Assembly (NCBI GenBank): GCA_038213805.1
Contig: JBBQSO010000014.1
Span: forward strand, 16,607-80,606
Direction of reading: 5' to 3'
Source: Planctomycetota bacterium
GTDB taxonomy: Bacteria; Planctomycetota; UBA11346
Length of the DNA: 64,000 nt
Shown: in pieces, positions 1 through 17,873 of the stretch
How positions within the stretch are numbered: the first letter of the stretch is position 1
Layout of the letters: each line of letters starts with the position of its first letter
Made by a program: the position numbers and the translations under genes
Notes under the pieces: generated by a model
Databases searched by the model: none
The model's input: the letters and a program-made list of their open reading frames with translations, nothing else
What the model was told of the DNA's origin: nothing

Positions 1-610
1 TCAGGCGGCTGCCGCGCTGACCGACCGGGTCCTCGACCTCGCGCTCGCCGCTGCGGTCGCGCACCGTCCATTGCACCGGGATGGCCTCGACCAGCTCGTG
101 GTCGGCGCCGGTCGCCTGGTCGCGCGCGCGCTTGAGCGCCCACGCCGCCTCGTTGGCGGAGAGCACGACCTCGTCACCCGGATCGGCCCAGCCGATGGCC
201 AGGCGCGAGGTGATGCTGGGGTCGGACATCGACAGGTAGACGGAGAAGGCCTCGACCCCGGCGCTGTCGCTGGCCAGGCGCACCACGTCGGCGAGCGCCT
301 CGCGCTTGCCCGACTCGCTGAGTTCGGCCCACACGCAGTCGATCGACTTGTGCGCGACCACCTTGTCGCCGTGCTCGGGGTGCAGCGCGGCGACCGTCGC
401 GGAGACGCGCTGGCTGGCGATCAGGACGATGACGACGACATTTTCGGGGGCGATGGGCATGATGGCTGGCCGTCGTGCAGTGATACGCGGCGCACGCGGC
501 GCGCCACCGGCGAAGGCCAGGCGCGCCAGCGCCGCGCGCCAGCGGCCGGGGTGGGGCAGGGCCGCGGCGGCGCGACCGCTGTCGCTGCTCCAGGCTTCAT
601 CGTTCCTCAT
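1..610 (-). CDS. ftsA: Divergent FtsA-like cell division protein, 5' part (runs off the window edge; not in the ORF track)
   Basis: Manual translation from ATG 610 (GGAG 6 nt upstream; alternative ATG 460): ...MPIAPENVVVIVLIASQRVSATVA...SAGVEAFSVYLSMS...DHELVEAIPVQWTVRDRSGEREVEDPVGQRGSRL. The last segment fits the FtsA 1C subdomain pattern (IP..F.vD...i.dPvG..G.rL), and the gene lies directly after ftsQ. Confidence 0.75.
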   Translation of the reverse strand, partial: MRNDEAWSSDSGRAAAALPHPGRWRAALARLAFAGGAPRAPRITARRPAIMPIAPENVVVIVLIASQRVSATVAALHPEHGDKVVAHKSIDCVWAELSESGKREALADVVRLASDSAGVEAFSVYLSMSDPSITSRLAIGWADPGDEVVLSANEAAWALKRARDQATGADHELVEAIPVQWTVRDRSGEREVEDPVGQRGSRL

Positions 611-662
611 GGTAGGCTCCGGGCGTCTAAGGTCATTACGGTGCGGGCGGCAGGCGGGCGGC

Positions 663-1868
663 TCAGCGCCCGTCGCGCATCACCAGGAAGGGTTGGCGGA
701 AGCGCACGTTGATCAACGCGACGCGGCCCAGGTCGCCCTGGCAGCGGATGGCGTGCACCAGGTCGCGCACCTTGTCGTCGGGCTTGACGCCAAAGCGCTC
801 CTCGGCGGGGTTGCCCCACACCAGGCGGCTGCCCTGGCGGGTGTAGAGCACGATGCCGCGGCTGCTGCCCTTGGCGTCGAGGACGTCGGCGAGGTGGATG
901 TCGGTGACCAAGCCGGGCTCGATCTGCGGTTCGAGCCGCGCCCACAGGTCGAGGGCGGCGCGCGCCGCAGCCAGGCCACCCTGCTCGAGCGCGCGCACCA
1001 GCGGGCGGCGTACCGTCGGGCCGGGCAGGATTCCGGGCAGGACGCGCGCTTCGGCGTCGAGCCAGGCGCGCTCGCCGCTGGCCAGCACCACCGGCATGAC
1101 CGGCTGGCGCAGGCCAAGCTCGAGTGCCAGGGTCCGGCGCACGCGATCGGGCGCGCCCGGTAGCGGCTCGTGCACCACCACCACCTGGCGGACCTCACCG
1201 ATCGCCGGCAGCACGCGCAGCCACGCCGCGAGCTTGTCCAGCACCCACGGCTGCGGCTCGCCGAGCTTGTCGCGGTAGGGGAAGGCGCGCAGCCAGCCGA
1301 TGACCTCGGCCTGGGCCAGGCGCGGGCCGGGCAGGAAATCGACGCGCACGTTGCTGACCGGGATGGGATCCGGGATCTGGCTGCCGGCATAGAAGCTGAA
1401 CAGCACCAGCACGGTGATCACCGCGGCGGCGGCCACGCCCCACGGACCGGCGCGGCGCATGCCCGATTGCACCTGCTGCGCGCCGTCGAGGCCGGCGTGG
1501 ATGCCGCGCGTGAGCGCGCCCTTGTCAGCGGGCATGGCGTCATCCTCCTGGTCGACGGCGTTGAACACCCCGGCACGCGCCGCGCCCTTGAGCGGCTTGC
1601 GGCGCGGCTTGCGCTTCTCAATGGCGCGGCTGCCGGCCTCGCCATCGACCAGGTAGCCCTCGGGCGGGGTCTCCTCGTGCGCTGCGAGGGCGTCGAGGGC
1701 TTCCGACGAGGGGTTGCGCGCGCGGCGGCCGCGGCGCTTGCGGTCGGCGGCGGCGATGATCCCGGCGCCGTCATCGGCACCGTCGTCGGCGGGCGGTGCG
1801 GGCGCACCGCGGCGCCGCGCCGGCGGCAGCGGGTCGAGGGCGGCGAGCAGGTCGTCGTGGTCGCTCAT
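663..1868 (-). CDS. ftsQ: FtsQ/DivIB-like cell division protein with a long disordered N-terminus
   Basis: Sits between ddl and ftsA. About 140 aa charged, low-complexity N-terminus, one TM helix (WGVAAAAVITVLVLFSFY), POTRA-like segment, LDAEARVLP and LYTRQGSRLVWG motifs. Confidence 0.75.
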   Translation of the reverse strand: MSDHDDLLAALDPLPPARRRGAPAPPADDGADDGAGIIAAADRKRRGRRARNPSSEALDALAAHEETPPEGYLVDGEAGSRAIEKRKPRRKPLKGAARAGVFNAVDQEDDAMPADKGALTRGIHAGLDGAQQVQSGMRRAGPWGVAAAAVITVLVLFSFYAGSQIPDPIPVSNVRVDFLPGPRLAQAEVIGWLRAFPYRDKLGEPQPWVLDKLAAWLRVLPAIGEVRQVVVVHEPLPGAPDRVRRTLALELGLRQPVMPVVLASGERAWLDAEARVLPGILPGPTVRRPLVRALEQGGLAAARAALDLWARLEPQIEPGLVTDIHLADVLDAKGSSRGIVLYTRQGSRLVWGNPAEERFGVKPDDKVRDLVHAIRCQGDLGRVALINVRFRQPFLVMRDGR

Positions 1869-2800
1869 GCGTGTTCCTTGGCGCGGGAGCGCGCGGCGGC
1901 GCGGGCCACCAGACGCTCGGCGAGCTCGCCGAAGCCGATGCCGGCGGCGGCGGCGGCCTTGGGCGTCAGGCTCTGGTCGGTGAAGCCGGGCAGGGTGTTG
2001 AGCTCAAGCACCGCGATGCCGCCGTCGGCGCAGCGCATCAGATCGGTGCGCGACAGGTCGCGACAGCCGCAGGCGCGATGCGCGGCCACCGCGAGCGCGG
2101 CGAGCTCGCTGGCCAGGGCGGGATCGGCGACCGGCACCTCCTGGGTGTCGGCGCGCTGGTACTTGGCCTCGAAATCGAAGATCCCCGACGCCGCGCGGAT
2201 GGTCAGCGGCGGCAGCGCCCGCGGCCCCGCGTCCTCGTCGATCACCGCGACCGTGTACTCGGGGCCCGGCAGGCGTTCCTCGAGCAGGTAGGGGATGGGC
2301 CCCGACTCGCGCAGGATCTCTTCGACCGCGGGCAGCAGGAAGCCTGGATTGGCGATCATCTTCAAGCCCACGGAGCTGCCATCGTTCGCCGGCTTCAGCA
2401 CCAGCCCGGCGTGGTGCGGGATGCGCAGGTCACGCGGCGAGAATGGGCGCGTGAGGTCGAGCTTCACCCCCCACGGCACGCGGATGCCGGCCTGCTCCAG
2501 ACGCTTCTTGGCAGCGTCCTTGTCCATGCACAACGCGCTGGCGGCGGCGTCGCTGCCGACGTAGGCGCGGCCGAGCGCCTCAAGCTCGCGCTGCAGCGTG
2601 CCGTCCTCGCCATAGGTGCCGTGCACGATATTGAAGACCACCGACCCCTGCCGCAGCTGACCGGCATCGAGGCGGCCGGCGAGGTCGATGACCAGCACGT
2701 CGAAGCCGCGCGCGCGCAGCGCCGCCGCGATCGCGGTGCCGGAGCGGCGGCTGATCTGGGCCTCGTGCCCCGGCCCACCCATGACCACATCGACGATCAT
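1865..2800 (-). CDS. ddl: D-alanine--D-alanine ligase
   Basis: GGPGHEAQISRRSG, HGTYGEDG, KPANDGSSVG, DFEAKY and LELNTLPGFT motifs. Confidence 0.96.
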   Translation of the reverse strand: MIVDVVMGGPGHEAQISRRSGTAIAAALRARGFDVLVIDLAGRLDAGQLRQGSVVFNIVHGTYGEDGTLQRELEALGRAYVGSDAAASALCMDKDAAKKRLEQAGIRVPWGVKLDLTRPFSPRDLRIPHHAGLVLKPANDGSSVGLKMIANPGFLLPAVEEILRESGPIPYLLEERLPGPEYTVAVIDEDAGPRALPPLTIRAASGIFDFEAKYQRADTQEVPVADPALASELAALAVAAHRACGCRDLSRTDLMRCADGGIAVLELNTLPGFTDQSLTPKAAAAAGIGFGELAERLVARAAARSRAKEHA

Positions 2801-3738
2801 GCCACCACCTCGCTGAGCTGTTCCGGATGGACGTGCAGTTCCGTCGGGCAGGCCCAGGTCTCGATCTCCATCTCCAGCACCACACCGCGCTCACGCCAGG
2901 CGCGACCGCGGATGAGCCGCACCAGCGCGGCGACGTCGGCGGCGCTGGCGTCGCGGCCCGGGTTGACGATGAAGTTGGCGTGCACCGCACTGACCTCGGC
3001 GCCGCCGTGGCGCGCGCCCTTCAGGCCGAGCTCGTCGATCAGGCGGCCCGCGGGCAGGCCCGGCGCCGGATTCTTGAACACGCAGCCGGCGCTGGGTTGG
3101 GCGAGCGGCTGGCTGGTGGCCTTGGCCTTCTTCAGCGTCGCCGCCTGGGCACGCAGACGTTCGGGATCGCCTGCGGCCAACTCCATTTCGCAGCCCAGGA
3201 AGAGCGTGCCGGGCGGCAGCCCGCAGGAGCGGTAGGCGGCGGCGAGCGCCGCGCGCTCCAGCCAGCGCGGCGCGTCCTCGCCGGGCAGCACCACTTCGAC
3301 GCGCGTGACCCAGTCCATGGTCCAGCAGGTGCTGGTGCCGGCATTCATGCGCAGCGCGCCGCCCACCGTGGCCGGTACACCGGCGAGGCCCTCGGGGCCG
3401 GCCAGGCCGGCCTTGATGCAGGCGCTGATCAGTTCGGCGAGGTCGACGGCCGCACCGCACTGGACGGTGGCGCGGCCGGCGCGCAGTGGGCCGAGCACGC
3501 AGCTGGCGAAGGCGCCGCCTAGACGCACCACCGCCTCGGGCACGCCGTCGTCGCCGACCAGCAGGTTGGCGCCCTTGCCCAGCCAGCGGTGCGGCTGAGC
3601 GAGCAGCTCGGGCAGATCGGCGCGGTCGGCGAGCGTGACCAGGGTGGCGGGGCCACCGATGCGCATGGTCGTGCACTGCGCGAGCGCGGTGGTGGCGACC
3701 GGGTTGCGCGCGAGGAAGCCGGGAGTGAAGCGCATCAT
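2797..3738 (-). CDS. murB: UDP-N-acetylenolpyruvoylglucosamine reductase
   Basis: TTMRIGGPA, LGKGANLLV, GGALRMNAG, SAGCVFKNP and HANFIVN motifs. ATG 3738 overlaps the murC stop. Confidence 0.96.
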   Translation of the reverse strand: MMRFTPGFLARNPVATTALAQCTTMRIGGPATLVTLADRADLPELLAQPHRWLGKGANLLVGDDGVPEAVVRLGGAFASCVLGPLRAGRATVQCGAAVDLAELISACIKAGLAGPEGLAGVPATVGGALRMNAGTSTCWTMDWVTRVEVVLPGEDAPRWLERAALAAAYRSCGLPPGTLFLGCEMELAAGDPERLRAQAATLKKAKATSQPLAQPSAGCVFKNPAPGLPAGRLIDELGLKGARHGGAEVSAVHANFIVNPGRDASAADVAALVRLIRGRAWRERGVVLEMEIETWACPTELHVHPEQLSEVVA

Positions 3739-5207
3739 GCCCTCACCTGCTCGCGCTGCTGGGGCGGATACGCATCGGGCTGATGCGCGTCGCACGGGTC
3801 GCCGGCGTGCGGGCCATGCTGATCATGGCCCGGCGCGAAAAAATCGAGGAGCGGCCCTGCAAGCTCTCCGACGTCGCCCGCGCCCAGCACCAGCACGGTG
3901 TCACCTTCGCGCGCATGCGCGGCGACCGCGGCGATGGCCTGCTGGCCGTCGGCCGCAAAGGCGACGGTTTCGGCGGCGAAGCCGGCGCGGCGCGCCGCAA
4001 TGGCCTCGGCCAGGGTGCGGCCGTCCACACCGGGGATGGGTGCCTCGCTGGCGGCGTAGATGGGAAGGATGGCGAGGGCATGCACCTGGTCGAAGGCGGC
4101 GGTGAAGTCGGCGAAGCAGGCGGCGGTGCGGGTGTAGCGGTGCGGCTGGAAGATGACGTGCACGCGACCGCCGCCCAGGCGCGCCGCGGCGATGGTGGCG
4201 CGCACCTCGGCGGGATGATGGCCGTAGTCCTCGACCACGCGGATGCCGCGCGGGCTGCCGTGCACGGTGAAGCGCCGGCGCACACGCTCACAGCGCGCCA
4301 GGGCGGACAGTGCGAGATCGGGCAGCACCTGGCGCGCCGCGGCGACCGCCATCAGCGCGTTGTGCAGCATGTGCGCGCCCGGCAGCGGCACGCTGATCCA
4401 GCCCAGGTCCTGGCCATGCGCGATGACGCGCGCGCGGCTGCCGTCGGCGCCCAGCTCGACCTCGGCGCTGTGATAATCGCCGGCGTCCAGCCCGCAGCGG
4501 ATCACCGGGCAGGCGAGCCCGGCGGTGACGCGCTCCGCCAGGCCGGTGGTCGGCACGATCGCCGCGCCCTGCGCGGGGATGCGCCCGAGCCAGCCGCGGA
4601 AGGCGTCCTCAAGCGCGGCGAAGCTGCCGTAGTGGTCGAGGTGCTCGCGATCGAGGTTGGTGACGATCGCCACGCTCGGCTCGACCTGGGCGAAGCTGCC
4701 GTCGCTCTCGTCGGTCTCGGCCACGAACAGGTCGCTGCGCCCGGCGCGCGCGCCGCCGCCGCCCAGCGCGCCGACCGCGCCGCCGACCATCACCACCGGG
4801 TCGAGGCCGGACTCGACCAGCAGATGGCCGAGCATCCAGGTGGTGGTGGTCTTGCCGTGGCTGCCGGCGACCGCCAAGGTGCGCGTCCCCGACATCAGCT
4901 TGACCAGGCATTCGCCGCGCGTCAGCACCGCCAGTCCGAGCGCGCGCGCTGCGACCAGTTCCGGATGGTCGACAGGCACCGCGGCGGTGTGCACGACGAT
5001 GTCCACGCCCGCGAGATGGGCCGGCGAGTGGCCGAGGTGCACGGCGATGCCACGCCGCGCCAGGCCCGCGGTGACCGCGCCGGCCTGGCCGTCGCAGCCC
5101 GAGACCAGCGCACCGACCTGGATGAGCAGCGGCGCGAGGGCGCTGACGCCGGCCCCACCGATGCCGATGAGGTGGACGTGGCGGTCGCGGAAGAAGCTGG
5201 TGATCAT
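3735..5207 (-). CDS. murC: UDP-N-acetylmuramate--L-alanine ligase
   Basis: HLIGIGGAGVS, GSHGKTTTT, ETDESDGSF, EDYGHHPAE and FQPHRYTRT motifs. ATG 5207 overlaps the murG stop. Confidence 0.96.
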   Translation of the reverse strand: MITSFFRDRHVHLIGIGGAGVSALAPLLIQVGALVSGCDGQAGAVTAGLARRGIAVHLGHSPAHLAGVDIVVHTAAVPVDHPELVAARALGLAVLTRGECLVKLMSGTRTLAVAGSHGKTTTTWMLGHLLVESGLDPVVMVGGAVGALGGGGARAGRSDLFVAETDESDGSFAQVEPSVAIVTNLDREHLDHYGSFAALEDAFRGWLGRIPAQGAAIVPTTGLAERVTAGLACPVIRCGLDAGDYHSAEVELGADGSRARVIAHGQDLGWISVPLPGAHMLHNALMAVAAARQVLPDLALSALARCERVRRRFTVHGSPRGIRVVEDYGHHPAEVRATIAAARLGGGRVHVIFQPHRYTRTAACFADFTAAFDQVHALAILPIYAASEAPIPGVDGRTLAEAIAARRAGFAAETVAFAADGQQAIAAVAAHAREGDTVLVLGAGDVGELAGPLLDFFAPGHDQHGPHAGDPCDAHQPDAYPPQQREQVRA

Positions 5208-6454
5208 GGCGTGGCCGGGGCCGCGGACAGGGCGGAGAGTTCGGCGGACGCATCGGCTTCCACCGCCAGCGCGGACGCGACCCTGCCCGGGGCCGAGCGC
5301 GCAGAGAGCGTCAGCGACGGCAGCAGTTGGGCGACGTGCGCGGTGCGTCCGGCGCTGCGCTGCGCGACGCCCGCGGCGCGCCGACGCTGCGGGCCGAGGC
5401 CCTCGACCAGCGCTGCGACCTCGGCGGCGGCCGTCGGCCGTGCCAGGCGCAGCGCGGCCACGCCCATGCGCGCGACCAGGTCGCGGCGCGCGGCTAGGCG
5501 CGCGAGCAGCGCGGCCAGCTCCAGCGGGGTGGTCGTGCCCTGGGGCAGCACCAGCGCGCCGCCGACGCGCGCGACGGCGCGCGCGTTGGCGGTCTGGTGG
5601 TCTTCGGCCGCCCACGGCAGTGGCACGTAGAGCGCGCCGATGCCGGCCGCGCACAGTTCGGCGACGGTGGTGGCGCCGGCGCGGGTGATGGCGAGGTCGA
5701 TGGTCGCGTAGAGGCCGGGCATGTCCTGGTAGAAGCCGTGCACCTCAGCGGCGACGCCGGCCGTGGCGTAGAGCGCGCGCACGCGCTCCTGGTCCTCGTC
5801 GCCGGCCAGGTGGACGACGCGCAGGCCGGGGATGGCGGCGAGTGTCGGCGCGGCCAGCGCGACCAGGTCGTTGAGGGTGCGCGCCGCCAGGCTGCCGCCG
5901 GCGACCAGCACGGTCAGGCCGGCGCCGCCGCCGCGCGGCAGCGGGGCGATGGCGCGCACCGGATTGCCGATTTGCACGACGCGCGCGCCCGGCAGCTCGC
6001 GGCGCGCCTCGGGGAACTGGGTGACGACGCGGTCGGCGAAGCGCGCTAGCAGGCGGTTGGTGCGGCCGGCGCGCGCGTTCTGTTCCATCACCACCAGCGG
6101 CCGGCCGAGCAGCGGCGCGAGCAGCCCCGGCACCAGCGCGGCGTAGCCGCCGAGCGCCACCACCGCGGCGGGCGGCCGCCGGCGCAGCTCACGCAGGCAC
6201 TGCCACGCCGCCCACGCGGAGGCGAGTAGCCAGCGCGGGCTGCTCAGACGCGGCCGCGACAAGCCCCAGGGCAGCAGCGCGATGCCCGCAGCGGGCACCA
6301 GCCGCGCCTCGATGCGCTGCGGATCGCCGATCCAGCGCAGCGTGCCCTGGCCACGAGCGCGCAGCGCGCTGGCCACGGCCAAGCCGGGCAGCACGTGGCC
6401 GCCGGTGCCGCCACCGCAGAAGAGGATGCCGTCAGCTTTCGGCATGGGTTTCAC
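5204..6454 (-). CDS. murG: Lipid II GlcNAc transferase with a C-terminal extension
   Basis: GGGTGGHVLPG, GGY, EQNARAGRTNR, GNPVR, GGSL, RAGATTVAE and DHQTANA motifs. Start GTG 6454 or ATG 6445. Confidence 0.96.
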   Translation of the reverse strand: MKPMPKADGILFCGGGTGGHVLPGLAVASALRARGQGTLRWIGDPQRIEARLVPAAGIALLPWGLSRPRLSSPRWLLASAWAAWQCLRELRRRPPAAVVALGGYAALVPGLLAPLLGRPLVVMEQNARAGRTNRLLARFADRVVTQFPEARRELPGARVVQIGNPVRAIAPLPRGGGAGLTVLVAGGSLAARTLNDLVALAAPTLAAIPGLRVVHLAGDEDQERVRALYATAGVAAEVHGFYQDMPGLYATIDLAITRAGATTVAELCAAGIGALYVPLPWAAEDHQTANARAVARVGGALVLPQGTTTPLELAALLARLAARRDLVARMGVAALRLARPTAAAEVAALVEGLGPQRRRAAGVAQRSAGRTAHVAQLLPSLTLSARSAPGRVASALAVEADASAELSALSAAPATP

Positions 6455-6663
6455 GCATGGGGCACATCGCGCAGCTCACGGCGCGCGCCGCGCTGCATGA
6501 CGCGCAGGCGGGTGACGACCGAACGCAGGCGCTCGCGCGTGCGCTCGGCGAGGTCGAGGCTCAGCACCACCCCTTCACCGGCCAGCAGCACGGGCAGCAC
6601 CGCGCCGGCTGCAGTGGCGGAGGCGAGCGGATCGCGGCGGCGCACCGCGTGATTGAGCTTCAT
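6451..6663 (-). CDS. Small hypothetical protein (70 aa) between ftsW and murG
   Basis: MKLNHAVRRRDPLAS...RELRDVPHA. Strong GGAGG Shine-Dalgarno sequence; the ATG overlaps the ftsW stop (ATGA) and its stop overlaps the murG GTG (GTGA). Confidence 0.65.
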   Translation of the reverse strand: MKLNHAVRRRDPLASATAAGAVLPVLLAGEGVVLSLDLAERTRERLRSVVTRLRVMQRGARRELRDVPHA

Positions 6664-7853
6664 GAGGCACCTCCTTCGTTCCAACGCCAGGCCTTTTCGC
6701 TGCGCACCGCTGCGCCGATGCGCGTGGTGGTGAGATTGCGCTTCGCCGCCAGCACGTTCGCGGCGGCGACCGCGTCGAGCACGCCGATCAGGCACAGGCA
6801 CACCACCACGCTTGAGCCGCCATAGCTGATCAAGGGCAGGGTCAGGCCCTTGGTCGGCACCGCGCCGGTGACCACCAGCATGTTCCAGAACGCCTGGGTG
6901 CCGAGCACCACCGTCGCGCCGACCGCGAGCAGGCGCAGGTAGCGGTCCTTGGCCTGGGCGGCGATGAGCAGGCCGGTGACCACCAGCAGCAGGTAGACGC
7001 CGGCCACCGCCAAGCCGCCGACCAGACCGAGCTCTTCGCAGATCACCGCGAAGATGAAGTCGGTGTGCTTTTCGGGCAGGAACGAATACTTCGCGGTGCT
7101 CTGGCCGAGGCCGACGCCGAACAGCCCGCCGCTGCCGATGGCGATGAAGCTCTGGCGCAGATGGTAGGCGGCGGGGCCTTCGGCGTTCCACGGATCGAGG
7201 AAGGCGAGCAGGCGGTCGCGGCGGTACGAGACCTGGATGACGGTGACATAGAGCAGCGCCGGCACGCACGGCACCGACACGCCGAGCAGATACCACCACG
7301 GCGCGCCAGCGAACAGCAGCATCGCGCCCAGCACCACCGCCATCACCACCACCGAGCCGAGGTCCTTGGTCATGTACACCAGGCCGGCAACGATGGCGAA
7401 GCCGGCGAGCGGCAGCAGCACGCCGTACCAGTTCGAGCGCACGCGCTCAGCGACGCGCGACAGGTGCCAAGCAGCGGCCACCACCAGCGCGAACTTGGCG
7501 AGTTCGGCGGGCTGCAGGTTGATGGGACCGAGGTCGATCCAGCGCTTGGCGCCGTTGATCTCGCGGCCGATCGCCAGCACGCCGACCAGCGCGCCGAGCG
7601 CGCCAAGCACCACTATCGCGATCAGCCAGCCCGAACGCAGGCGCTCCGCGCCCAGGCTGCTGATGACCATGGCCAGCACCGCGCCCACCGCCATGGCGAG
7701 CGCCTGCTTGACCAGGAAGGCGTAGGACACCGCGGCCTCGCGCCCGGCCGCGCCGATGCCCATGGTCGTGGTGCTGGCGATCATCACCAGGCCGAAGCAG
7801 GCGATCAGGGTGACCAGCAGCCAGAGTTGGAGACGCAGCCAGCGCGGGGTCAT
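6660..7853 (-). CDS. ftsW: SEDS peptidoglycan polymerase FtsW
   Basis: About 10 TM segments; NGAKRWI, QPAELAK, LPEKHTDFIFAVICEELG and PTKGLTLPLISYGGSS motifs. Confidence 0.96.
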   Translation of the reverse strand: MTPRWLRLQLWLLVTLIACFGLVMIASTTTMGIGAAGREAAVSYAFLVKQALAMAVGAVLAMVISSLGAERLRSGWLIAIVVLGALGALVGVLAIGREINGAKRWIDLGPINLQPAELAKFALVVAAAWHLSRVAERVRSNWYGVLLPLAGFAIVAGLVYMTKDLGSVVVMAVVLGAMLLFAGAPWWYLLGVSVPCVPALLYVTVIQVSYRRDRLLAFLDPWNAEGPAAYHLRQSFIAIGSGGLFGVGLGQSTAKYSFLPEKHTDFIFAVICEELGLVGGLAVAGVYLLLVVTGLLIAAQAKDRYLRLLAVGATVVLGTQAFWNMLVVTGAVPTKGLTLPLISYGGSSVVVCLCLIGVLDAVAAANVLAAKRNLTTTRIGAAVRSEKAWRWNEGGAS

Positions 7854-8023
7854 GGGCGGAAGTCCCGGGGACGCGAGGCGGAGGGCGGGTGGCGATGAGC
7901 GGATGCCGCTAAGCGGTCCGCGCTGAGCGCCGCACACGTCGGCAAGCGCGAGGCGCGAGGAGCGAGGCGCGAGGCCGTGCGCACCAGGTGCATGCCGTGG
8001 AAGGGGCGGGCGGTGGTGCTCAT
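7850..8023 (-). other. 57-codon ORF or spacer in the usual murD position, containing repeat motifs
   Basis: [27 protein letters not shown]...RDFRP with ATGA overlaps to both mraY and ftsW. Contains four copies of (C/A)GCGAGG (7947-7974) and a fragment of repeat family A (7857-7875). Confidence 0.4.
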
Positions 8024-9237
8024 CTGACCTTCAACGTGGCGAGAGCGGCCAGGGCGCCGAGCGCCGCGACGATCCAGAAGCGCAGCACGATCTTCGACTC
8101 GGGCCAGCCCTTGTATTGAAAGTGGTGGTGGATGGGCGCGCACAGGAACACCCGCTTGCCGCCGCGCAGGCGGTAGCTGGCGACCTGGATGGCCACCGAG
8201 GCGGCCTCGACCACGAACACCAGGCCGACCAGCAGGATGAGGAATTCCTGCTTGGTGTTGAGCGCGATCAGGCCGAACACCCCGCCCAGCGCCTGGCTGC
8301 CGGTATCGCCCATGAAGACCTCGGCGGGCGCCGAGTTGAACCACAGGAAGCCCAGGCACGCACCGGCGATGGCGGCGCAGTAGATGGCGACGTCCTGACC
8401 GCCGGAGATGTACAGCACCTTGAGGTAGTCGGCGCTGTCGACGCGGCTGGTCAGATAGGCGATGCCCATGAAGGCGAGCGCAGCGATCAGCATGGTGCCC
8501 GAGGCCAGGCCATCCATGCCGTCGGTGAAGTTCACGCCGTTGGCGCACGACACGCTGACGAAAACCACCCACAGCACCGAGCCCACGCCGAGGTTGACCG
8601 CCCACTCCACCGGCACGAACGGGAAGCTGAGCTGGTGCACGCCTAGGCGCACGGTGTAGCTGATGTCGTGGCCCTGCAGCTCGAAGTGCTTCTTGTACCA
8701 GTCGAGCGGGAAGCCCGCCGGGTGGTCGGCGCCGGTCAGCAGCAGGTCGGCGTTGTGCTGGTTGATGATGTAGAGCCCGATGCCGCACACCGCGGCGGCG
8801 AGCAGCTGGATGCCGAGCTTCACCGAGGACGGCGTGCCCTTGGCGCCCTTGAAGATCTTGGTGCGGTCGTCGAGGAAACCGACCAGCGCGAACGACAGCA
8901 GCCCGAACTGCAGCAGCCAGCTGCGCAACTCGAGCGGATCGCACCACAGCAGGCCGGTCACCGCGATGCACGCCACCAACCCCAGCCCACCCATGGTCGG
9001 CGTGCCCTTCTTGCCCTCGCGCATCGCGTCGACCACCACCGCGCCGTCGCCCTTCGCGCCGGACTCGCCGAACTTCTTGCGCTTCAGCCAGCGGATCAGC
9101 GGCGGCATCGCCACCAGCATGAGGATGAACGCGGTCAGCGCCGCCAGCACCACGCGCGTGGTGACATAGTCGAGCAGGCGCAGCGGGCCCCAGTAGATGC
9201 CCCAGTCGGCGAGCAGGTTGTTGAGGCGGCTCATCAT
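8020..9237 (-). CDS. mraY: Phospho-N-acetylmuramoyl-pentapeptide transferase
   Basis: [34 protein letters not shown] and APIHHHF motifs. Confidence 0.97.
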
Positions 9238-10691
9238 GGCGTGCAGACCCCGGCGTGGCGGCCGGTGGGGACGTCGACCAGGGCGCGCACCACGGTCTCA
9301 AGGCCGGCGGAGCGGCTGGCCTTGACCAGGATGGTGGTCGTGCCCGCCGCGAGGCGGCGCGCGATCAGCGGCAGCGCAGTCTCGCGATCAGCGGCGTGCT
9401 CGCCGTCGGGACCGCCGGCGGCGCGGTAGGCGTCGAGGATGGCGCGTGCGCGCTCCCCGACCGTGAGCAGGGGCAGGGCGAGGCGCGCGGCCTCCGCACC
9501 GACCTGGGCGTGGCCGGCGGCGCTGCCGTCGCCCAGTTCGCCCATGCCGCCCAGCACCGCCAGGCGGCGCCCGGCGTAGCCGGCCAGCACCTGCAGGCCG
9601 GCGGCCATGCTGCCGGGGTTGGCGTTGTAGCTGTCATCAAGGACCAGGTGCCCGCCACTGGCCGGGCGCGCGCGCAGGCGGCCCGAGACCGCAGTGATCG
9701 CACCCAGCGCGCGCAGCGCGGCATCGGCGGGCACGCCGGCCGCGACCGCGGTGCGCCAGGCGAGCGCCGCATTGGCGAGGTTGTGCGCGCCGAGCAGGGT
9801 GAGGTCGACGCTGCCGCTGGCGGTGCGCAGGGTGATGCCGGCGTCGCGCACGTCGCCCTCGACCGGCAACGCGCTGGAGCCGACCTCGAGCAGATGCCGA
9901 CCCGCGGCGCGCTCGCGTAGCGCGGCGAGCAGCACCGCGGCGTCCTGGCCGCCCGCGCGCGCCGCGGCCTCCAAGCCGTGCAGGCCGAGCAGCGCCGGCG
10001 CGCCAGCGGGCAACGCTGCGAACAGTTCGCCCTTGGCGCGCGCCACGCCAAGCAGTGAACCGAAGCCCTCAAGATGGGCTGGGCCGATGGCGGTGATGAC
10101 GCCGAGCTGCGGCTGGGCGATGGCGGCGAGCGCGGCGATCTCGCCGGGGTGGTTGGCGCCCAGCTCGATGACCGCGTGCGCCACCCCAGGCGGCGTGTTC
10201 AGCACCGTCACCGGCACGCCCAGGTGGTTGTTGAGATTGCCGCGCGTCGCGTGCACCGCGCCGCCCGCGCCGCAGGCCAGCGCGATCAGCTCCTTGACGG
10301 TGGTCTTGCCGTTCGAGCCGGTGACGCCGATCCAGGTCGCGCCCTGGTAGCGGCGGCGGAACTCCATGGCCAGGGCGGCAAGCGCCAGGGTGACGTCGGC
10401 GACCACCAGCACCGGCACCGGCACCGCCACCGGACGGGTGGCGAGGATCAACGCCGCGCCGTCCCCGACCGCGGTGGCGGCGAAGTCGTGGCCGTCGTGG
10501 CTGGCGCCGGGCAGGCAGGCGAAGAGGTTGCCGCGCCGCACCGCACGGCTGTCGATGCTCGCGCCGTGGACGACGACCTCGCGCGCCGCACCGTGCCACA
10601 CCCCGCCGGTCAGGCGCACCGCAACCTGCTGATCGAGCAGGAACGGAGCCGGGCGGGGAACGCTGGCGACGGGCAGGCGCGCGGAGGTCAT
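9234..10691 (-). CDS. murF: UDP-MurNAc-tripeptide--D-Ala-D-Ala ligase
   Basis: IDSR, DGHDF, GVTGSNGKTTVKE, GNLNNHLGVP, DDSYNANP and VKASR motifs. ATG 10691 overlaps the murE stop. Confidence 0.95.
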   Translation of the reverse strand: MTSARLPVASVPRPAPFLLDQQVAVRLTGGVWHGAAREVVVHGASIDSRAVRRGNLFACLPGASHDGHDFAATAVGDGAALILATRPVAVPVPVLVVADVTLALAALAMEFRRRYQGATWIGVTGSNGKTTVKELIALACGAGGAVHATRGNLNNHLGVPVTVLNTPPGVAHAVIELGANHPGEIAALAAIAQPQLGVITAIGPAHLEGFGSLLGVARAKGELFAALPAGAPALLGLHGLEAAARAGGQDAAVLLAALRERAAGRHLLEVGSSALPVEGDVRDAGITLRTASGSVDLTLLGAHNLANAALAWRTAVAAGVPADAALRALGAITAVSGRLRARPASGGHLVLDDSYNANPGSMAAGLQVLAGYAGRRLAVLGGMGELGDGSAAGHAQVGAEAARLALPLLTVGERARAILDAYRAAGGPDGEHAADRETALPLIARRLAAGTTTILVKASRSAGLETVVRALVDVPTGRHAGVCTP

Positions 10692-12298
10692 GGGCGGGTT
10701 GGCTCCGCACCGGCCGCCGGGTCGCCGCTGGCAACGATGCCGCCCTCGAGTCCGGCCACGAAGGCGCGGTCGTCCCACGGCAGCACGCGGTCCTTGATGA
10801 TCTGGCTGGTCTCGTGGCCCTTGCCCGCGACCACCACCACGCCCTCGGGCCCGGCCAAGGCGCGTGCCAGGCGGATGGCGCGCGCGCGGTCGAGCTCGAC
10901 CACCAGCAGGCGGCCATCGGGCATGCGCTTGCCATCCATCATCACCACCGGCGTGGCGCCAGGGGTGCGCAGCGCGGCGGCCAGGACCTGCAGATCGGCG
11001 CCGGCGCCACTCTCGGCCCAGAACACCTGGGTGCTCTGCGGCAGGCCGGCGATGACCTCCTCGGCGATGCTGCGCGGCTCCTCGCCGCGGCTGTTGTCGG
11101 TGGTCAGCACACCAAGGTCGGCCTCGAGCGCAGCGCAGCCCATCGGCCCGCGCTTGGTGCGGTCGCGGTCGCCGCCGCAGCCGTAGACGCACACCAGGCG
11201 GCGCTGCGGAAACTCGCGGCGCACCGCGCGCAGCATCACCGCGATCTCCTCCGGAGTGTGCGCGTAGTCGACGAAGGTGTCGGGGCCGTGCGCAAGCAGC
11301 TCAAGGCGGCCGGGCACCGCCGGCAGCGTGGCGAGGCGCGCCAGTGCGGTCGCCAGCGGCACGCCGGTGGCGCTAGCCATCAGCGCGCCAGCCGCCGCGT
11401 TCCAGGCGTTGAAGTCGCCGGGCAGGCGCACCGGCAGCGGGTAGTCGATGCCGGCGAAACGCAGCCGCCAACCGCGTTCGGCCTTGACGATGCGCGCCTC
11501 GCCCTTGGCGAAGCCCAGGGTCAGCACGCGCGCGCCCGCGGTCTGCGCGGCGTGGGCGACGGTGTGCGCGTGCGCGTCCTCGGCGTTGACGATCGCCAGG
11601 CCGCCCGGTGCCAGCCAGCGGAAGATGCGCAGCTTGGCCTGCAGGTAGGCGCCAAGCGTGCGGTGGTAGTCGAGGTGGTCCCGGCCCAGGCCGGTGAAAG
11701 CGACCGCGGCGAAGCGCAGCCCGGCGAGGCGCTGCTGGTCGCCGGCGTGCGACGAAGCCTCGAGCGCCACGCCCGGGCAGTCGCCGGGCAGCCCGGCGAG
11801 GAAGCGGTGCAGCTCTTCGGGCGGCGGCGTGGTCTGCGCGTTGGGGCGCTCGGCGGTGCCGTCATGCCAGCCGATGGTGCCGACGCGCGCGGCGCGCGTC
11901 TCGGCCCCGCCCATCGCCCACCACGCGCAGTGGGTGGTGGTCGACTTGCCCGCGGTGCCGGTGACCGCGACCAGCGGCGGGTGCGCCAGATCCAGACCGT
12001 GCGCCGCGGCGCTGGCGCGCGCGAAGGCCCAACGCGGGTGCGCGCTGCGCAGGCCCGGCCCCTCGTCCTCGAGTTCGGCGACGATCACCGCGGCGCCGGC
12101 GGCGTGCGCCTCGGCGCGGTGCCGGGCGCGTTCCGCGGTGCGGCCGCTCGCCACGTAGGCCTCGCCGGGGCGCACCGTGCGGCTGTCGCGCGCGATGCCG
12201 GCGAGCGCGGCCGGCAGCACGAGCGCGCCGCCGGCCGGCTGCGCGGTCAGCGCGGGCAGCAGGGCCTGACCAGCGAAGAGACGGGCGATGGGCATCAT
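10688..12298 (-). CDS. murE: UDP-MurNAc-dipeptide--diaminopimelate ligase
   Basis: VTGTAGKSTT, QTTP, EASSH, DHLDYH, VDYAHTP, GCGGDRDRTKR, DNSR and AGKGHE motifs. Confidence 0.95.
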   Translation of the reverse strand: MMPIARLFAGQALLPALTAQPAGGALVLPAALAGIARDSRTVRPGEAYVASGRTAERARHRAEAHAAGAAVIVAELEDEGPGLRSAHPRWAFARASAAAHGLDLAHPPLVAVTGTAGKSTTTHCAWWAMGGAETRAARVGTIGWHDGTAERPNAQTTPPPEELHRFLAGLPGDCPGVALEASSHAGDQQRLAGLRFAAVAFTGLGRDHLDYHRTLGAYLQAKLRIFRWLAPGGLAIVNAEDAHAHTVAHAAQTAGARVLTLGFAKGEARIVKAERGWRLRFAGIDYPLPVRLPGDFNAWNAAAGALMASATGVPLATALARLATLPAVPGRLELLAHGPDTFVDYAHTPEEIAVMLRAVRREFPQRRLVCVYGCGGDRDRTKRGPMGCAALEADLGVLTTDNSRGEEPRSIAEEVIAGLPQSTQVFWAESGAGADLQVLAAALRTPGATPVVMMDGKRMPDGRLLVVELDRARAIRLARALAGPEGVVVVAGKGHETSQIIKDRVLPWDDRAFVAGLEGGIVASGDPAAGAEPTRP

Positions 12299-14319
12299 CG
12301 GGCGGAATCTCCGGAGATGGTGACGGCGCGCGGGGCGGCGGAACTGGAGACGGTCAGCGGGGCGTCGGCGTCCTCGCGCGGCGCGGCAGGCGCGTGCGCG
12401 GCGGTCGGGCGCGCCGCGCCGCGGACGGGACGGGCGGATCGCGCCGGCGCGGCGCTGGCAGCGGCGACCGGTCGTGCAACCGCGGCAGCCGGAGCGGCCG
12501 GCGCACCGGCGACCGTGCTGGTACGGCCGGCCTTGGCGTCCTTCGCCGCGAGCTTCTCCTGCTCCGCCGCGACCAGGTCCGCACGCTTGGGCACGTGCAG
12601 ATATTCGAGCGATGCCTGCAGCGCCTTCTGCACCACCGGTGCGGCGGTCTCGGCGCCGTAGTGGCCGCCGCGGCTGGGGTCGTCGATCACCACCAGGCAC
12701 AGCAGTTCGGGCTCGACGTTCGGCTCGGCCGGGGCCCAGCACACGAACGAGCCGACGTGGTTGGCGTGCGAATAGTGGCCGCCGACCAGTTTCTCGGCGG
12801 TGCCGGTCTTGCCCGCGGCGGTGTAGCCGGAGAGCTCGGCTTTGCGCCCGGTGCCCTCGGTCATGGTGTGGGTCATCGCCTCCTGGATCTGCGCGGCGTC
12901 GTCGACACTGAAAGTGCGCCGGGCCGGGGGCAGCACCGGCAGCGGCAGCTCGCGGCCGCGCCCGTGCTCGTCGAGCGAATAGATGCGCCGCACCAGACGC
13001 GGCGGCAGCCACACCCCGTGGTTGGCGGTGGCGGCGTGGGCCATGGCCAGCTGCAGCGGCGTAACCGCGATCTCGTGGCCCATCGGGATCGACATGCACG
13101 AGCCGAGCACCGACCAGCGCGGGCGCGCCAGCACGATGCCGGCATCCTCGCCGGGCAGACAGATGCCGGTGCGGCGGCCGAAGCAGAAGGTGCCGACCCA
13201 GCGGAACAGGCGCTCGACGCCCAGGCGGATGCCGAGCTTGGCCATCAGGATGTTGTCGGACAAGGCGATGCCCTGGGTGACGGAGAGGTTGCCGTGGCCG
13301 CCGCTGCCGACGCTGTGGTCAGTGATGGTACGCACCGCCTTGCCTTCGCGGTGCGTCCAGCGCCCATGCTCGCAGAAGATGCTCTCGGCCCAGGTCGTCA
13401 GGCCCTCGGCCACGGTCGCGCCGGCGATCAGCGGCTTCATCGTCGAGCCCGGCTCGTAGACGAAGGCGATGACGTTGTCGCGCAAGGCGCGCGGCTGCAG
13501 CTTGGTCATGTCGGTCGGGTCGAAGGACGGATAGCTCGCCATCGCCACGATCTCGCCGGTGGTCGGGCGGACCATGATCGCCGCGGCGTTCGCGGGCCGG
13601 CTCTTCTCGACCTGCTCGAGCAGGGCCTGTTCGAGGATATGCTGCAGGGTGGCGTCGATGGTCAGCTGGACGTGCGCGCCGCCCTGGGCGGGCACGCTTT
13701 CGGCGTCGGTCAGACTGGGCTTGCCGAGCGCGTCGATGGTCACGGTCTCGTGCCCGGGTACGCCGCCGAGCAGCGCGTTGCAGGTCTGCTCGAGGCCGGC
13801 GCCGCCACTGCCGTCGCTCTGCACGAAGCCGAGCACGTGCGCGGCGAGCGGCCTTTCCGGATAGCGGCGGGTGAACTCGCGGCGCACGTAGACGCCGGTC
13901 AGGTTGAGCTTGCGGATCTGCTCGGCGTGGTCGTCGTCGACGCCCTTGGCGAGCAGCCGACCGTTGCGCGGCGACTCGAACTGTTCGCGCAGATGGTCGC
14001 GCGGCAGGCCGAGCAGGCGCGCCAGCTCGACGGTCGCGCGCAGGCGGTCGTCCATGTACACCGGGTCGCAGCTGATCGTCCAGGTGCCGTCGCTGACCGC
14101 GAGCGGCGCACCCTGCGCGTCGTAGAAGTTGCCGCGCGCCGCGGGCAGCGTCCAGGTGCGGGTGCGCTGCTTCTCGCCCATCTGCGCGAGGTGCTCCGCC
14201 TGGTCGACCTGCAGGTGGTGCAAGCGCATCGTCACCAGTCCGAACAGCCCCGCGAACACCAGCAGGGCAAGGCCGGTGCGCCAGGGTTGTGCGGTGACAG
14301 GGACGAGCGCTTCGTTCAT
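12295..14319 (-). CDS. ftsI: Class B penicillin-binding protein (FtsI/PBP3) with an Ala/Pro-rich C-terminal tail
   Basis: N-terminal TM helix, RGNFYD, EPGSTMK (SxxK), SDN (SxN) and GKTGT (KTG). Confidence 0.95.
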   Translation of the reverse strand: MNEALVPVTAQPWRTGLALLVFAGLFGLVTMRLHHLQVDQAEHLAQMGEKQRTRTWTLPAARGNFYDAQGAPLAVSDGTWTISCDPVYMDDRLRATVELARLLGLPRDHLREQFESPRNGRLLAKGVDDDHAEQIRKLNLTGVYVRREFTRRYPERPLAAHVLGFVQSDGSGGAGLEQTCNALLGGVPGHETVTIDALGKPSLTDAESVPAQGGAHVQLTIDATLQHILEQALLEQVEKSRPANAAAIMVRPTTGEIVAMASYPSFDPTDMTKLQPRALRDNVIAFVYEPGSTMKPLIAGATVAEGLTTWAESIFCEHGRWTHREGKAVRTITDHSVGSGGHGNLSVTQGIALSDNILMAKLGIRLGVERLFRWVGTFCFGRRTGICLPGEDAGIVLARPRWSVLGSCMSIPMGHEIAVTPLQLAMAHAATANHGVWLPPRLVRRIYSLDEHGRGRELPLPVLPPARRTFSVDDAAQIQEAMTHTMTEGTGRKAELSGYTAAGKTGTAEKLVGGHYSHANHVGSFVCWAPAEPNVEPELLCLVVIDDPSRGGHYGAETAAPVVQKALQASLEYLHVPKRADLVAAEQEKLAAKDAKAGRTSTVAGAPAAPAAAVARPVAAASAAPARSARPVRGAARPTAAHAPAAPREDADAPLTVSSSAAPRAVTISGDSAR

Positions 14320-14335
14320 CAGGGGGTCGGCGGGG

Positions 14336-14641
14336 TCAGCGGACGGCGAGCGGGGCGGCGGCGCGGTCGCGCGCAGCGGTGGGTTCCGGACCGGTGAGCG
14401 GCAGCTCGATACGGCGCGCGATGTCCTCGAGCGCGGTCGGGCTGGCCGCCTGGTCGAGGACCGCGCGCAGGCGCTCCTGCTTGTAGGCGAGGTCGGTGCG
14501 CGCCTTGAAGTCGGCACCGCGCTGCTTGGCGAGCGCGGCCTGTTCGTTGCCGAGCAGCGCGACCTTGAGGGCGATGGCCAGGGCCAGGCTGATCCAGGCC
14601 ACCGCGACCAGGGCGTGCAGGAAGAGGTCGGGACGCTTCAT
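14336..14641 (-). CDS. ftsL: FtsL-like septum protein
   Basis: 101 aa with one TM helix followed by a coiled coil ending LEDIARRIEL; lies between rsmH and ftsI. Confidence 0.7.
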   Translation of the reverse strand: MKRPDLFLHALVAVAWISLALAIALKVALLGNEQAALAKQRGADFKARTDLAYKQERLRAVLDQAASPTALEDIARRIELPLTGPEPTAARDRAAAPLAVR

Positions 14642-15537
14642 GGGTGGGCTCCGGCGCGTTCAGCCCAGCGCAGCTTTGCGGGGGCGGAACGCGGGTTGGC
14701 GGACAGTTCGGCTGCACCGGCGGTGATCACGCGGCGCGCAGCGTCGGCATAGGTGCCGGCCTCGCGGCGATCGCGGAAGTCGGTCTTCACGGCGCGGTCT
14801 TCAAGGCTGTGGAAGCTGATCACCACCGCGCGCCCGCCCGGGGCGAGCAGCGCGGGCAGCGCGGCGAGCAGGCGGCCGAGCTGGCCGAGCTCGTCGTTCA
14901 CGGCGATGCGCAGGGCCTGGAAGGTGCGGCCCGCGGGATGGCGGTTATGGTGACCGGGCACCACGCGGCGGATCTCCTCCGCGAGCTCGGCGCCGGTGTG
15001 CAGGCGGCCTTCCGTGCGGCCGCGCTTGAGTGCGGCGGCGATGCGCCGGCTGAGGCGCTCTTCGCCGTATTGGTAGATGATGTCGGCGAGCTCGTCCTGG
15101 CCGAGCGCATCGATCAGCTCCAGCGCGCTGCGCGGGCAGCCGTCGCCCATGCGCATATCGGCCTGCGCGGCCGAGCGGATGGAGAAGCCCCGGTTGTCGT
15201 CGTCAAGTTGCATGCTCGAAACCCCGAGATCCGCCAACACGCCGTCGAAACGCTCCCCCTCCCTGACCAGCGCCTCCATGGCGTCGGCGAAGGTCCCGGC
15301 GCGCACGCTGAAGCGCGCCCCGTAGGCCGCGAGCCGCGTCGTCGCCAACGCGCGCGCCTGCGCATCGCGGTCCACTCCGTGGACCGTGGCCCCGCCTGCA
15401 AGCAGGGCCTCGCTGTGGCCACCCAGACCCAGGGTGCAGTCCAGCACCCGCCGGCCCGGCGCGGGGCGGAGGTGTTCGACCACCTCCGCGAGCAGCACCG
15501 GGATGTGACGCGCCGCGGCGTCGGTCGGCTCAGGCAC
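14638..15537 (-). CDS. rsmH: 16S rRNA m4C1402 methyltransferase
   Basis: HIPVLLAEV, DCTLGLGGHS, DLGVSSMQLD, FQALRIAVN, ISFHSLEDR and NPRS motifs. GTG start inferred. Confidence 0.96.
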   Translation of the reverse strand: MPEPTDAAARHIPVLLAEVVEHLRPAPGRRVLDCTLGLGGHSEALLAGGATVHGVDRDAQARALATTRLAAYGARFSVRAGTFADAMEALVREGERFDGVLADLGVSSMQLDDDNRGFSIRSAAQADMRMGDGCPRSALELIDALGQDELADIIYQYGEERLSRRIAAALKRGRTEGRLHTGAELAEEIRRVVPGHHNRHPAGRTFQALRIAVNDELGQLGRLLAALPALLAPGGRAVVISFHSLEDRAVKTDFRDRREAGTYADAARRVITAGAAELSANPRSAPAKLRWAERAGAHP

Positions 15538-15763
15538 CGACGGCCACGCGCGGCGCCGCCGCGGCCGCGTGGTCGACGGTCCGGCGCAAAAAAGCGAGGT
15601 AGGCACTGTCCTCGGCCACCGCCGGGCCGAGGCGCCGACGCAGGCAGGTAAGGCGCAGGGCGGCGAGTTCGAGGTCGCCCTGCAGGTCGGTGCCGCTGGC
15701 GGTGGAGTGCTCCACCGCGGCGTCGAGGGCGTGCAGCAGGCGACCGAGCGTGACATCGTGCAT
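15530..15763 (-). CDS. Small hypothetical helical protein (77 aa; up to 95 aa from ATG 15817) between mraZ and rsmH
   Basis: MHDVTLGRLLHALDAAVEHS...PRVAVGA. GGAG 6 nt upstream of ATG 15763; the stop overlaps the rsmH start; the ORF fills the mraZ-rsmH gap. Confidence 0.6.
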   Translation of the reverse strand: MHDVTLGRLLHALDAAVEHSTASGTDLQGDLELAALRLTCLRRRLGPAVAEDSAYLAFLRRTVDHAAAAAPRVAVGA

Positions 15764-15819: not shown

Positions 15820-16320
15820 CTAGATCATCAGGTAGGAGTTGAGGTCGGCGTTGTAGCTGGGGCCCGCATCGCGGCCCGACCAGGCGAGGTAGTCGGCGGG
15901 ATTCCACACCTGGATGGTGGTGTTGGTGCAGACGAAGAAGACGTCGCGCTCAAGGCCGAGGTAGCCGACCAGGTGGGCGGGCAGCACCACGCGGTGCTGG
16001 GCGTCGATCGCCATCGAGGCCATCTCGCCATTGAGCGCGGTGACCAGGTGCAGGCGCTGCTCGGGACTAAGCCGGGCATCGTCAAGGATGCGCTGCTCGC
16101 GGCGCTGGAGCTCCTTCTCGGTGAGCAGCAGAAGGATCGGGTAGACGCGATTTTCTGCATTTTTCCCGGCATTTCCCGCGCCGCCCACGGTCGGCATCGC
16201 GTGCTTCATGCCGCGCAGATGGTCCACGCCGGCCTCCTGCAGGAGGGCACGGGCCTCGCGCGGGATGGTCACCTGATTCTTCGGCGACAGACGTTGGGTT
16301 GGAAGCACGGCCAGCTCCAC
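15820..16320 (-). CDS. mraZ: MraZ transcriptional regulator (divergent)
   Basis: Two AbrB-like repeats, LSPKNQVTIPREAR and IDAQHRVVLPAHL, plus IQVWNP; first gene of the dcw cluster. Confidence 0.85.
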   Translation of the reverse strand: MELAVLPTQRLSPKNQVTIPREARALLQEAGVDHLRGMKHAMPTVGGAGNAGKNAENRVYPILLLLTEKELQRREQRILDDARLSPEQRLHLVTALNGEMASMAIDAQHRVVLPAHLVGYLGLERDVFFVCTNTTIQVWNPADYLAWSGRDAGPSYNADLNSYLMI

Positions 16321-17863: not shown

Positions 17864-17873
17864 CTCGCCCGGC

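Follow-up and report, generated by a model that had tools for sequence, protein, structure and literature searches.

A fixed and highly derived FtsA-like protein in an FtsZ-less class of Planctomycetota

Planctomycetes are described as dividing without ftsZ, with ftsA lost in most of them (PMC12673574), and a 2025 study draws the same picture, except that ftsA and alr are kept in a few cases (PMC12283558). How free-living planctomycetes divide in the absence of FtsZ is presented as an open question (PMC5147048, PMC6952346, PMC12673574), and the portions of these reports relevant here treat planctomycete ftsA as a presence/absence character only. In the Chlamydiae, FtsZ-independent division has been reported to be organised by MreB and RodZ (PMC7029139). 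In the literature covered, we found no study of a planctomycete FtsA that has been kept or remodelled, subscription journals and the species-level ftsA supplements of two reports (PMC12283558, PMC12673574) lying outside its scope. Here we analyse a 64,000-nucleotide stretch (hereafter the window; C14:16607-80606) of a Planctomycetota genome of 5.5 Mb, assembled in 180 contigs and 90.3% complete, whose left edge cuts an ftsA-like gene. We report that this gene encodes a derived FtsA that is fixed in an FtsZ-less planctomycete class.

The initial annotation of the window had read an open reading frame (ORF) following ftsQ as FtsA-like, on account of a recognisable segment of subdomain 1C. The window holds the 5' part of this ORF (codons 1-203, positions 2-610, minus strand), its 3' side being cut by the left window edge, and the gene runs 757 bases past that edge. 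The complete gene (C14:15849-17216, minus strand; locus L001) codes for a protein of 455 residues (P0001). Whereas the 203-residue fragment scored below the Pfam cut-off for SHS2_FTSA (22.5 against 25.4 bits), the full protein exceeded it (PF02491, 27.9 bits), bearing out the original assignment, and also exceeded the cut-off of the FtsA family PF14450 (34.7 against 31.8 bits). Subdomain 1C, the SHS2 insert matched by PF02491, covers approximately residues 129-203 of the part within the window (positions 2-226, minus strand) and includes the segment IPVQWTVRD...EVEDPVGQRGSRL (I177-L203, positions 2-82, minus strand). Divergence from characterised FtsA proteins is nevertheless considerable. The NCBIfam equivalog TIGR01174 returned 74.7 bits, far under its cut-off of 175.85, a value that no match in the class reached (0/48 genomes), and a tblastn search of the genome with E. 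coli FtsA left the gene unmatched at E <= 1. The best match by sequence in the PDB was the Vibrio FtsA 7q6f (E 9e-10).

Canonical FtsA proteins, as represented by structures from E. coli, Vibrio maritimus, Xenorhabdus, S. aureus and T. maritima (7q6d, 7q6f/7q6i, 7q6g, 3wqt/3wt0 and 1e4g/4a2a, respectively), share a fold made up of subdomains 1A, 1C, 2A and 2B. An AlphaFold2 model of the FtsA-like protein, built with 63 homologues, had a mean predicted local distance difference test score (pLDDT) of 86 and a predicted template modelling score (pTM) of 0.80. The first 16 Foldseek matches of this model were all FtsA chains, with target template modelling scores (TMt) of 0.67-0.75. Alignment with VIA-align gave Z scores of 28.8-34.8 over 341-358 residues for 11 FtsA entries, against 18-25 for PilM and 17-19 for MreB, a ranking that upholds FtsA over the two other actin-like families with which the initial annotation had suggested a fold comparison. 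Since the structural alignment is nearly full-length, subdomains 1C and 2B must both be present. The model thus shows an FtsA fold with all four subdomains at 17-20% identity to canonical FtsA, and the gene occupies the canonical position, following ftsQ where the dcw (division and cell wall) gene cluster ends. The differences from the canonical proteins comprise a conserved motif in 2B that is specific to the clade (GQQFIW), an extension at the N-terminus of some clade members and, relative to E. coli FtsA, a three-residue insertion (GER) in 1C and a seven-residue deletion ahead of 1C, where the 1A/1C boundary is uncertain. At the C-terminus, W447, W449 and L450 are conserved as a W-x-W-L motif in which W449 aligns with W415 of E. 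coli FtsA, a residue of its membrane-targeting helix.

The N-terminal extension, which the initial annotation had raised as a possibility, comprises residues 1-50 (window positions 461-610, minus strand), the start of the short form being M51 (458-460, minus strand). It is specific to a subclade, about half of the clade consisting of 405-residue forms that lack it. Four relatives (P0003, P0020, P0028 and P0030) have no methionine at the position of the short-form start and have in common with the present protein the conserved motif RW-x-GR-x-A, on which grounds the 50-residue extension is probably genuine, both in this genus and in some of its sister genera. It is modelled at a pLDDT of 33-54, and its ratio of nonsynonymous to synonymous substitution rates (dN/dS), 0.31 in comparison with L008, indicates a looser constraint than that acting on the core.

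A word-indexed search with the FtsA-like protein returned 66 homologues at 43-95% identity, and all the named ones belong to Planctomycetes or to Planctomycetota metagenome-assembled genomes (MAGs), in agreement with the planctomycete host first proposed for the window. The only related loci recovered from genome contigs were two near-identical ones, L007 and L008, both from Planctomycetota MAGs. A profile search of 1.84 billion representative sequences recovered 11 full-length clade members with scores of at least 357 bits, after which scores dropped to 142 bits for ordinary FtsA proteins. In a FastTree phylogeny of 63 rows (13 clade members, the first 45 other matches, E. coli FtsA and two members each of families f17 and f47, discussed below), the clade was monophyletic with a support of 100 and a long stem (1.19 plus 0.41 substitutions per site). 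Most of the deep forks were unresolved, and hence no sister group is claimed for it.

The class-level group to which the genome belongs was represented by 48 species genomes, which fall into 18 genera of one family. All 48 carry the FtsA-like gene (E <= 1e-30), in every case without internal stops. The dN/dS of the gene was 0.04 with respect to L007 and 0.15 with respect to L008, more distant pairs being saturated. Conservation extends over the whole protein: in every subdomain 19-36% of the alignment columns are at least 90% conserved, including positions in 1C, in the former nucleotide loops and in the GQQFIW motif of 2B, with values of 30% for the part of 1C that lies within the window and 35-36% for the 2A segments. 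Sequence comparison thus shows that every genome of the class keeps the gene and that purifying selection acts on it. The genomes of the family also differ in base composition by about 30 points at the orthologous locus, an unusually large spread within one family, with a G+C content of 44.5% in L029 (G066:C34) and 69-76% in L001 and L031.

Proteins of the ASKHA superfamily (acetate and sugar kinases, Hsc70 and actin) bind nucleotides through a phosphate-1 motif (D/E-x-G-T/S), a phosphate-2 motif (D-x-G-G/A-G-T) and an adenosine motif (T-G-G). In the FtsA-like protein, the sequence VIVLIASQRV (residues 60-69; window positions 404-433, minus strand) aligns with the phosphate-1 loop of Vibrio FtsA 7q6f (GLDIGTATV) and of E. 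coli FtsA (GLEIGTAKV), and it follows from this alignment that the acidic residue and the glycine have both been replaced. The two remaining motifs lie outside the window and are altered as well, phosphate 2 reading DCGARCT for DIGGGT and the adenosine motif LGRA for TGGA, so that the degeneracy first noticed in phosphate 1 extends to all three loops.

An alignment to E. coli FtsA was made of 71 clade members and 125 other FtsA proteins, taken as the next-best profile matches. An aspartate or glutamate at the acidic position of phosphate 1 was present in 124 of the 125 other FtsA proteins and in none of the 71 clade members, where the position is occupied by L (34), Q (10), H (8), S (5) and others, M and R among them. 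The phosphate-1 glycine was found in three of the 71 and in 124 of the 125, and the loss of both residues noted initially in one sequence is therefore a property of the clade. Other positions are retained: the phosphate-2 aspartate (71/71, against 123/125 in other FtsA proteins), the first phosphate-2 glycine (71/71 and 125/125) and the first glycine of the adenosine motif. The third phosphate-2 glycine has become arginine in 67 of the 71 clade members, a residue absent from this position in the other FtsA proteins (glycine in 90/125), and the second adenosine glycine is arginine throughout the clade (71/71; glycine in 119/125 elsewhere). Only two of the 125 proteins from outside the clade carry arginine at this last position; one of them is an Omnitrophota FtsA (P0084, VVAGRS), which could represent a convergent change in another lineage of the Planctomycetes-Verrucomicrobia-Chlamydiae (PVC) group. 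The alignment shows that all three loops were rewritten in a coordinated way along the stem of the clade and have been fixed since, from which we infer that the FtsA-like protein has probably lost canonical binding and hydrolysis of Mg-ATP.

Searches for FtsZ in the genome yielded no match with TIGR00065, with PF00091 at E <= 1 or with the divergent FtsZ-like protein of family f47 as query, and the best tblastn hits of E. coli FtsZ had E values of 0.8-1.0. Across the class, TIGR00065 (E <= 0.001) matched in a single genome out of 48. This candidate (G004; L027 1323-2555, G004:C55:36356-36469) is a 38-residue canonical N-terminal fragment, bounded by N characters and embedded in an aldo/keto-reductase-like ORF; it is a scaffolding or contamination artefact, which automated profiling would score as presence of FtsZ. 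Real matches thus number zero in 48 genomes, and the host does not fall in a lineage that normally carries FtsA together with FtsZ. Within the contig, the complete ftsA-like gene is followed by a gene for a cyclophilin-type prolyl isomerase and not by ftsZ. Given this neighbour and the lack of FtsZ matches in genome and class, an ancestral FtsA/FtsZ pair, one of the two possibilities put forward in the initial annotation, is not supported. In the same genome, no match was obtained for SepF or ZapA, and MinC yielded a mere 18 bits inside an ORF of 894 residues; MreB is present (456 bits). The same contig also carries, roughly 9 kb downstream from the ftsA-like gene, an ORF of 2128 residues with coding-type codon bias (L001 103-6486, minus strand).

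The gene upstream of the ftsA-like gene (window positions 663-1868, minus strand) encodes a bitopic protein of 401 residues with one transmembrane helix and a periplasmic part composed of a polypeptide transport-associated (POTRA) and a beta domain. No Pfam family was detected in it at E <= 0.01, the only match up to E 10 being DUF7939 (E 0.26); there was no NCBIfam match, profile searches did not return any FtsQ of the PDB, and hhalign against E. coli FtsQ gave a probability of 0.2. Its AlphaFold2 model (pLDDT of 80 overall and above 90 over residues ~150-400) had FtsQ chains as its ten best Foldseek matches in the PDB (E 5.6e-7 to 1.8e-3, TMt 0.51-0.67), followed by POTRA domains. The modelled fold, and the fold only, identifies this neighbour as FtsQ, in keeping with the FtsQ type first assigned to it. 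Canonical FtsQ has only a short cytoplasmic stub. The present protein has instead a basic, mostly disordered cytoplasmic tail of about 140 residues (residues 1-140; window positions 1450-1868, minus strand), in which three motifs are conserved among 26 aligned homologues: LIAAAERKRR, a basic patch RR-x-PRRK, and PG-x-VTRG-x-HAGL just ahead of the membrane helix. These conserved motifs mark the tail as a candidate site at which the FtsA-like protein could dock.

The ftsQ-like gene likewise occurs throughout the class (48/48 genomes). By a manual count of gene coordinates, the two genes are adjacent and co-directional in 35 genomes and convergent neighbours in three; they lie 1.5 kb apart in one genome and 22 kb apart in another, and on different contigs in eight, some of which may reflect contig breaks.

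Further upstream in the window, and all on the minus strand, Pfam identified ddl (1865-2800), murB (2797-3795), murC (3735-5654), murG (5204-6454), ftsW (6660-7937), mraY (8020-9237), murF (9234-11192), murE (within an ORF at 10688-13099), ftsI (12295-14517), mraW (14638-15756), mraZ (15820-16320) and, directly upstream of mraZ, the alanine racemase gene alr (16925-17911). The resulting order is alr-mraZ-mraW-ftsI-murE-murF-mraY-ftsW-murG-murC-murB-ddl-ftsQ-ftsA, and, with the genes from ftsW to alr all upstream on one strand, the dcw cluster is nearly complete and collinear. No murD was seen in its usual place between mraY and ftsW (7937-8020), the rest of the genome not having been searched for it. 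The class keeps both alr and ftsA, two genes reported lost in most planctomycetes (PMC12283558).

The distribution of FtsA and FtsZ in the phylum was assessed on an even sample of 151 Planctomycetota genomes out of a larger set. Among these, the clade profile matched strongly in the family of the window alone, and there in all seven genomes sampled. FtsA-type genes were present in 20 of the 151 genomes and real FtsZ-like matches in six, none of the latter exceeding the family cut-off of 295 bits. TIGR01174 scores were lowest in the family of the window (70-102 bits), intermediate in families f17 (three genomes), f57 (two) and f31 (one), at 136-177 bits, and highest in f47 (five genomes), f13 and f59, at 163-298 bits.

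In the last three families, a divergent FtsZ-like gene (48-200 bits) lies immediately downstream of ftsA, except in G092, where the contig ends. The f47 pair is exemplified by L023 (ftsA at 51-1286 and the FtsZ-like gene at 1177-2376, both on the plus strand; G067:C25) and occurs also in G117:C3, G158:C191 and G140. Its FtsA looks canonical (DVGT, DIGAGT and LTGGT; 257-298 bits to TIGR01174), and its FtsZ-like protein scores 48-64 bits and apparently carries AAVAGRE in place of the tubulin signature GGGTGxG, as judged by eye against the consensus and not against a reference alignment. Adjacent FtsA and FtsZ-like genes were also found in f13 and f59 (G030:C123:13-1979 and G089:C1:49278-51246; loci L043 and L042), with FtsZ-like scores of 200 and 117 bits, respectively. 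At least when the phylum is taken in its GTDB delimitation, the f47 pair contradicts the statement that every planctomycete has lost ftsZ.

FtsZ was not matched in f17, f57 and f31. The ftsA genes of f17 (L032 7499-8755 in G119; L034 4715-5986 in G094; L044 in G034) and those of f47, the families examined for position, are at the end of the dcw cluster, and the loci of f57 (L039 and L040) and f31 (L041) place ftsA at the end of the cluster or near it. The f17 protein also has degenerate phosphate-1 and phosphate-2 motifs, but with different substitutions (IPLSG, DICDTHTD and SGAA), and it falls outside the clade of the window in the FastTree phylogeny. The loops of the f57 and f31 proteins are largely canonical, and f59 has degenerate phosphate-2 and adenosine loops despite its FtsZ-like gene. 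These FtsZ-less families with near-canonical loops, together with f59, contradict the notion that, phylum-wide, the ATP motifs disappear along with FtsZ.

The role that we consider most likely for the FtsA-like protein is that of a scaffold, acting without canonical use of ATP, for the FtsQ/FtsW/FtsI wall-synthesis machinery. Taken together, a true but highly derived ftsA orthologue whose product has such a role is the best joint explanation of the data, and we judge it to be on balance probable, if by a small measure. The gene belongs to the core of an uncultured class that has lost ftsZ and still holds a near-complete, collinear dcw cluster together with FtsQ, FtsW, FtsI and MreB. Under the proposed mechanism, the two conserved arginines would probably fill or latch the nucleotide cleft, and the protein would act on the membrane as an FtsZ-independent cytoplasmic scaffold or regulator. 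Subdomain 1C and the conserved 2B surface bearing GQQFIW would serve to organise the septal peptidoglycan synthase FtsQ-FtsW/FtsI or to activate it, possibly by contacting the conserved basic motifs of the long FtsQ cytoplasmic tail. The specific proposal of a nucleotide-independent, arginine-latched FtsA that organises peptidoglycan-based division with FtsQ and FtsW/FtsI, and without a tubulin homologue, is more tentative, and we advance it as a possibility rather than as a probable outcome. The second option of the initial annotation, an intermediate in which a non-canonical FtsA has been repurposed, fits all the genomic evidence, and its functional part is what we infer here.

Several observations weigh against this interpretation. 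The C-terminal tail has a hydrophobic moment of 0.47, to be compared with a median of 0.45 and a 95th percentile of 0.63 for internal windows of the protein and with 0.78 for the E. coli tail. Being no higher than that of internal windows, it does not establish membrane anchoring, and attachment through the W-x-W-L tail is plausible on the conserved residues but receives no support from this measure. The ftsQ-like and ftsA-like genes are not co-directional neighbours in 13 of the 48 genomes, the state of the motifs and the presence of FtsZ show no simple match within the phylum, and the clade members are MAGs throughout. The dcw genes retained by Planctopirus limnophila are reported to be non-essential (PMC12283558), and position in the cluster is therefore no proof of a role in division. 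Lastly, the conservation of D259, G261, R263, T265, G377 and R378 may equally mean that the pocket still binds a ligand.

This last point underlies the alternative that fares best, according to which the protein remains nucleotide-binding: the two arginines would contact phosphates, the ligand would be ATP, ADP or another anionic molecule held independently of magnesium, and the bound state would control assembly. An abandoned pocket would be expected to drift, and the pocket instead includes some of the most conserved residues of the protein (D259, G261 and R378 in 71/71 sequences, R263 in 67/71), with the phosphate-2 aspartate and first glycine and the first adenosine glycine all kept. The phosphate-1 loop speaks to the contrary, its acidic residue being absent throughout the clade (0/71) and replaced by variable residues, and its glycine nearly so (3/71). 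Moreover, on the basis of the ASKHA motifs, bulky arginines at two near-universal glycine positions would be expected to intrude on the space of the phosphates and the ribose. We consider a ligand-binding pocket rather unlikely, while giving it more weight than any of the explanations that follow.

A second alternative holds that the protein has left cell division, either for another envelope machine in the manner of PilM or as a general membrane-associated actin-like factor, its place in the dcw cluster being a leftover. PilM (2ych, 5eou) has the same FtsA-like fold, including a 1C subdomain of SHS2 type, and serves as a scaffold, binding the bitopic PilN at its cytoplasmic tail, rather than as a dynamic filament. 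The FtsA-like protein does match the PilM families weakly, at 25.5 bits for PF11104 and 20.6 bits for TIGR01175, but both scores are under the respective cut-offs (27 and 133), and its structural likeness to FtsA (Z 29-35) is clearly greater than its likeness to PilM. In the loci examined, none of the flanking genes resembles pilN, pilO, pilP or pilQ. The G066 copy of the gene is located outside the dcw cluster, with the gene for a large surface-repeat protein on one side and rmuC on the other, an arrangement that, like the dispensability reported for P. limnophila, would suit a function outside division; adjacency to the ftsQ-like gene in 35 of the 48 genomes, across 18 genera, argues for the opposite. 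A departure from division thus appears improbable.

Even less can be said for an FtsZ that is present but was missed through assembly gaps or extreme divergence, which would make this an ordinary FtsA-FtsZ system with an unusual FtsA. The incompleteness and fragmentation of the genome (90.3% complete, 180 contigs) and the very divergent FtsZ-like genes next to ftsA in other Planctomycetota families (48-200 bits) could favour it. Against it stand the absence of real matches in 48 genomes, the failure of PF00091, the f47 query and tblastn alike in the genome itself, the unrelated genes found downstream of ftsA in each locus examined and the fact that SepF, ZapA and MinC were not found, and we regard it as highly improbable. 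Least credible of all is a relic in the course of decay and loss, for although the low TIGR01174 score (74.7 against 175.85 bits) and the lack of a tblastn match to E. coli FtsA (E <= 1) might suggest decay, the gene is intact in 48 of 48 genomes at a dN/dS of 0.04-0.15, its product is modelled with confidence and the replaced residues are themselves fixed.

A parallel to the scaffold proposed here is found in the Chlamydiae, which likewise belong to the PVC group, lack FtsZ and employ an actin-fold protein together with peptidoglycan synthases (PMC7029139). They differ in that they are reported to be without FtsA and to use MreB (PMC7029139), whereas the present class has both MreB and a derived FtsA. 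The class is a defined candidate in which to ask whether FtsA organises septal wall synthesis without FtsZ, and it bears also on the conversion of an actin-fold protein to a nucleotide-independent form. Within a single phylum, the families analysed make up an ordered series, from FtsA with a divergent FtsZ-like protein, through a canonical-looking FtsA alone and a remodelled FtsA alone, to neither of the two, which is useful for reconstructing the loss of the Z-ring. If the proposal of a nucleotide-independent, arginine-latched FtsA is correct, the class would represent a living intermediate, with the PVC ancestor and its FtsA/FtsZ divisome on one side and budding planctomycetes devoid of a divisome on the other, and the arm of the divisome that leads from FtsA to the late proteins would be able to work alone.

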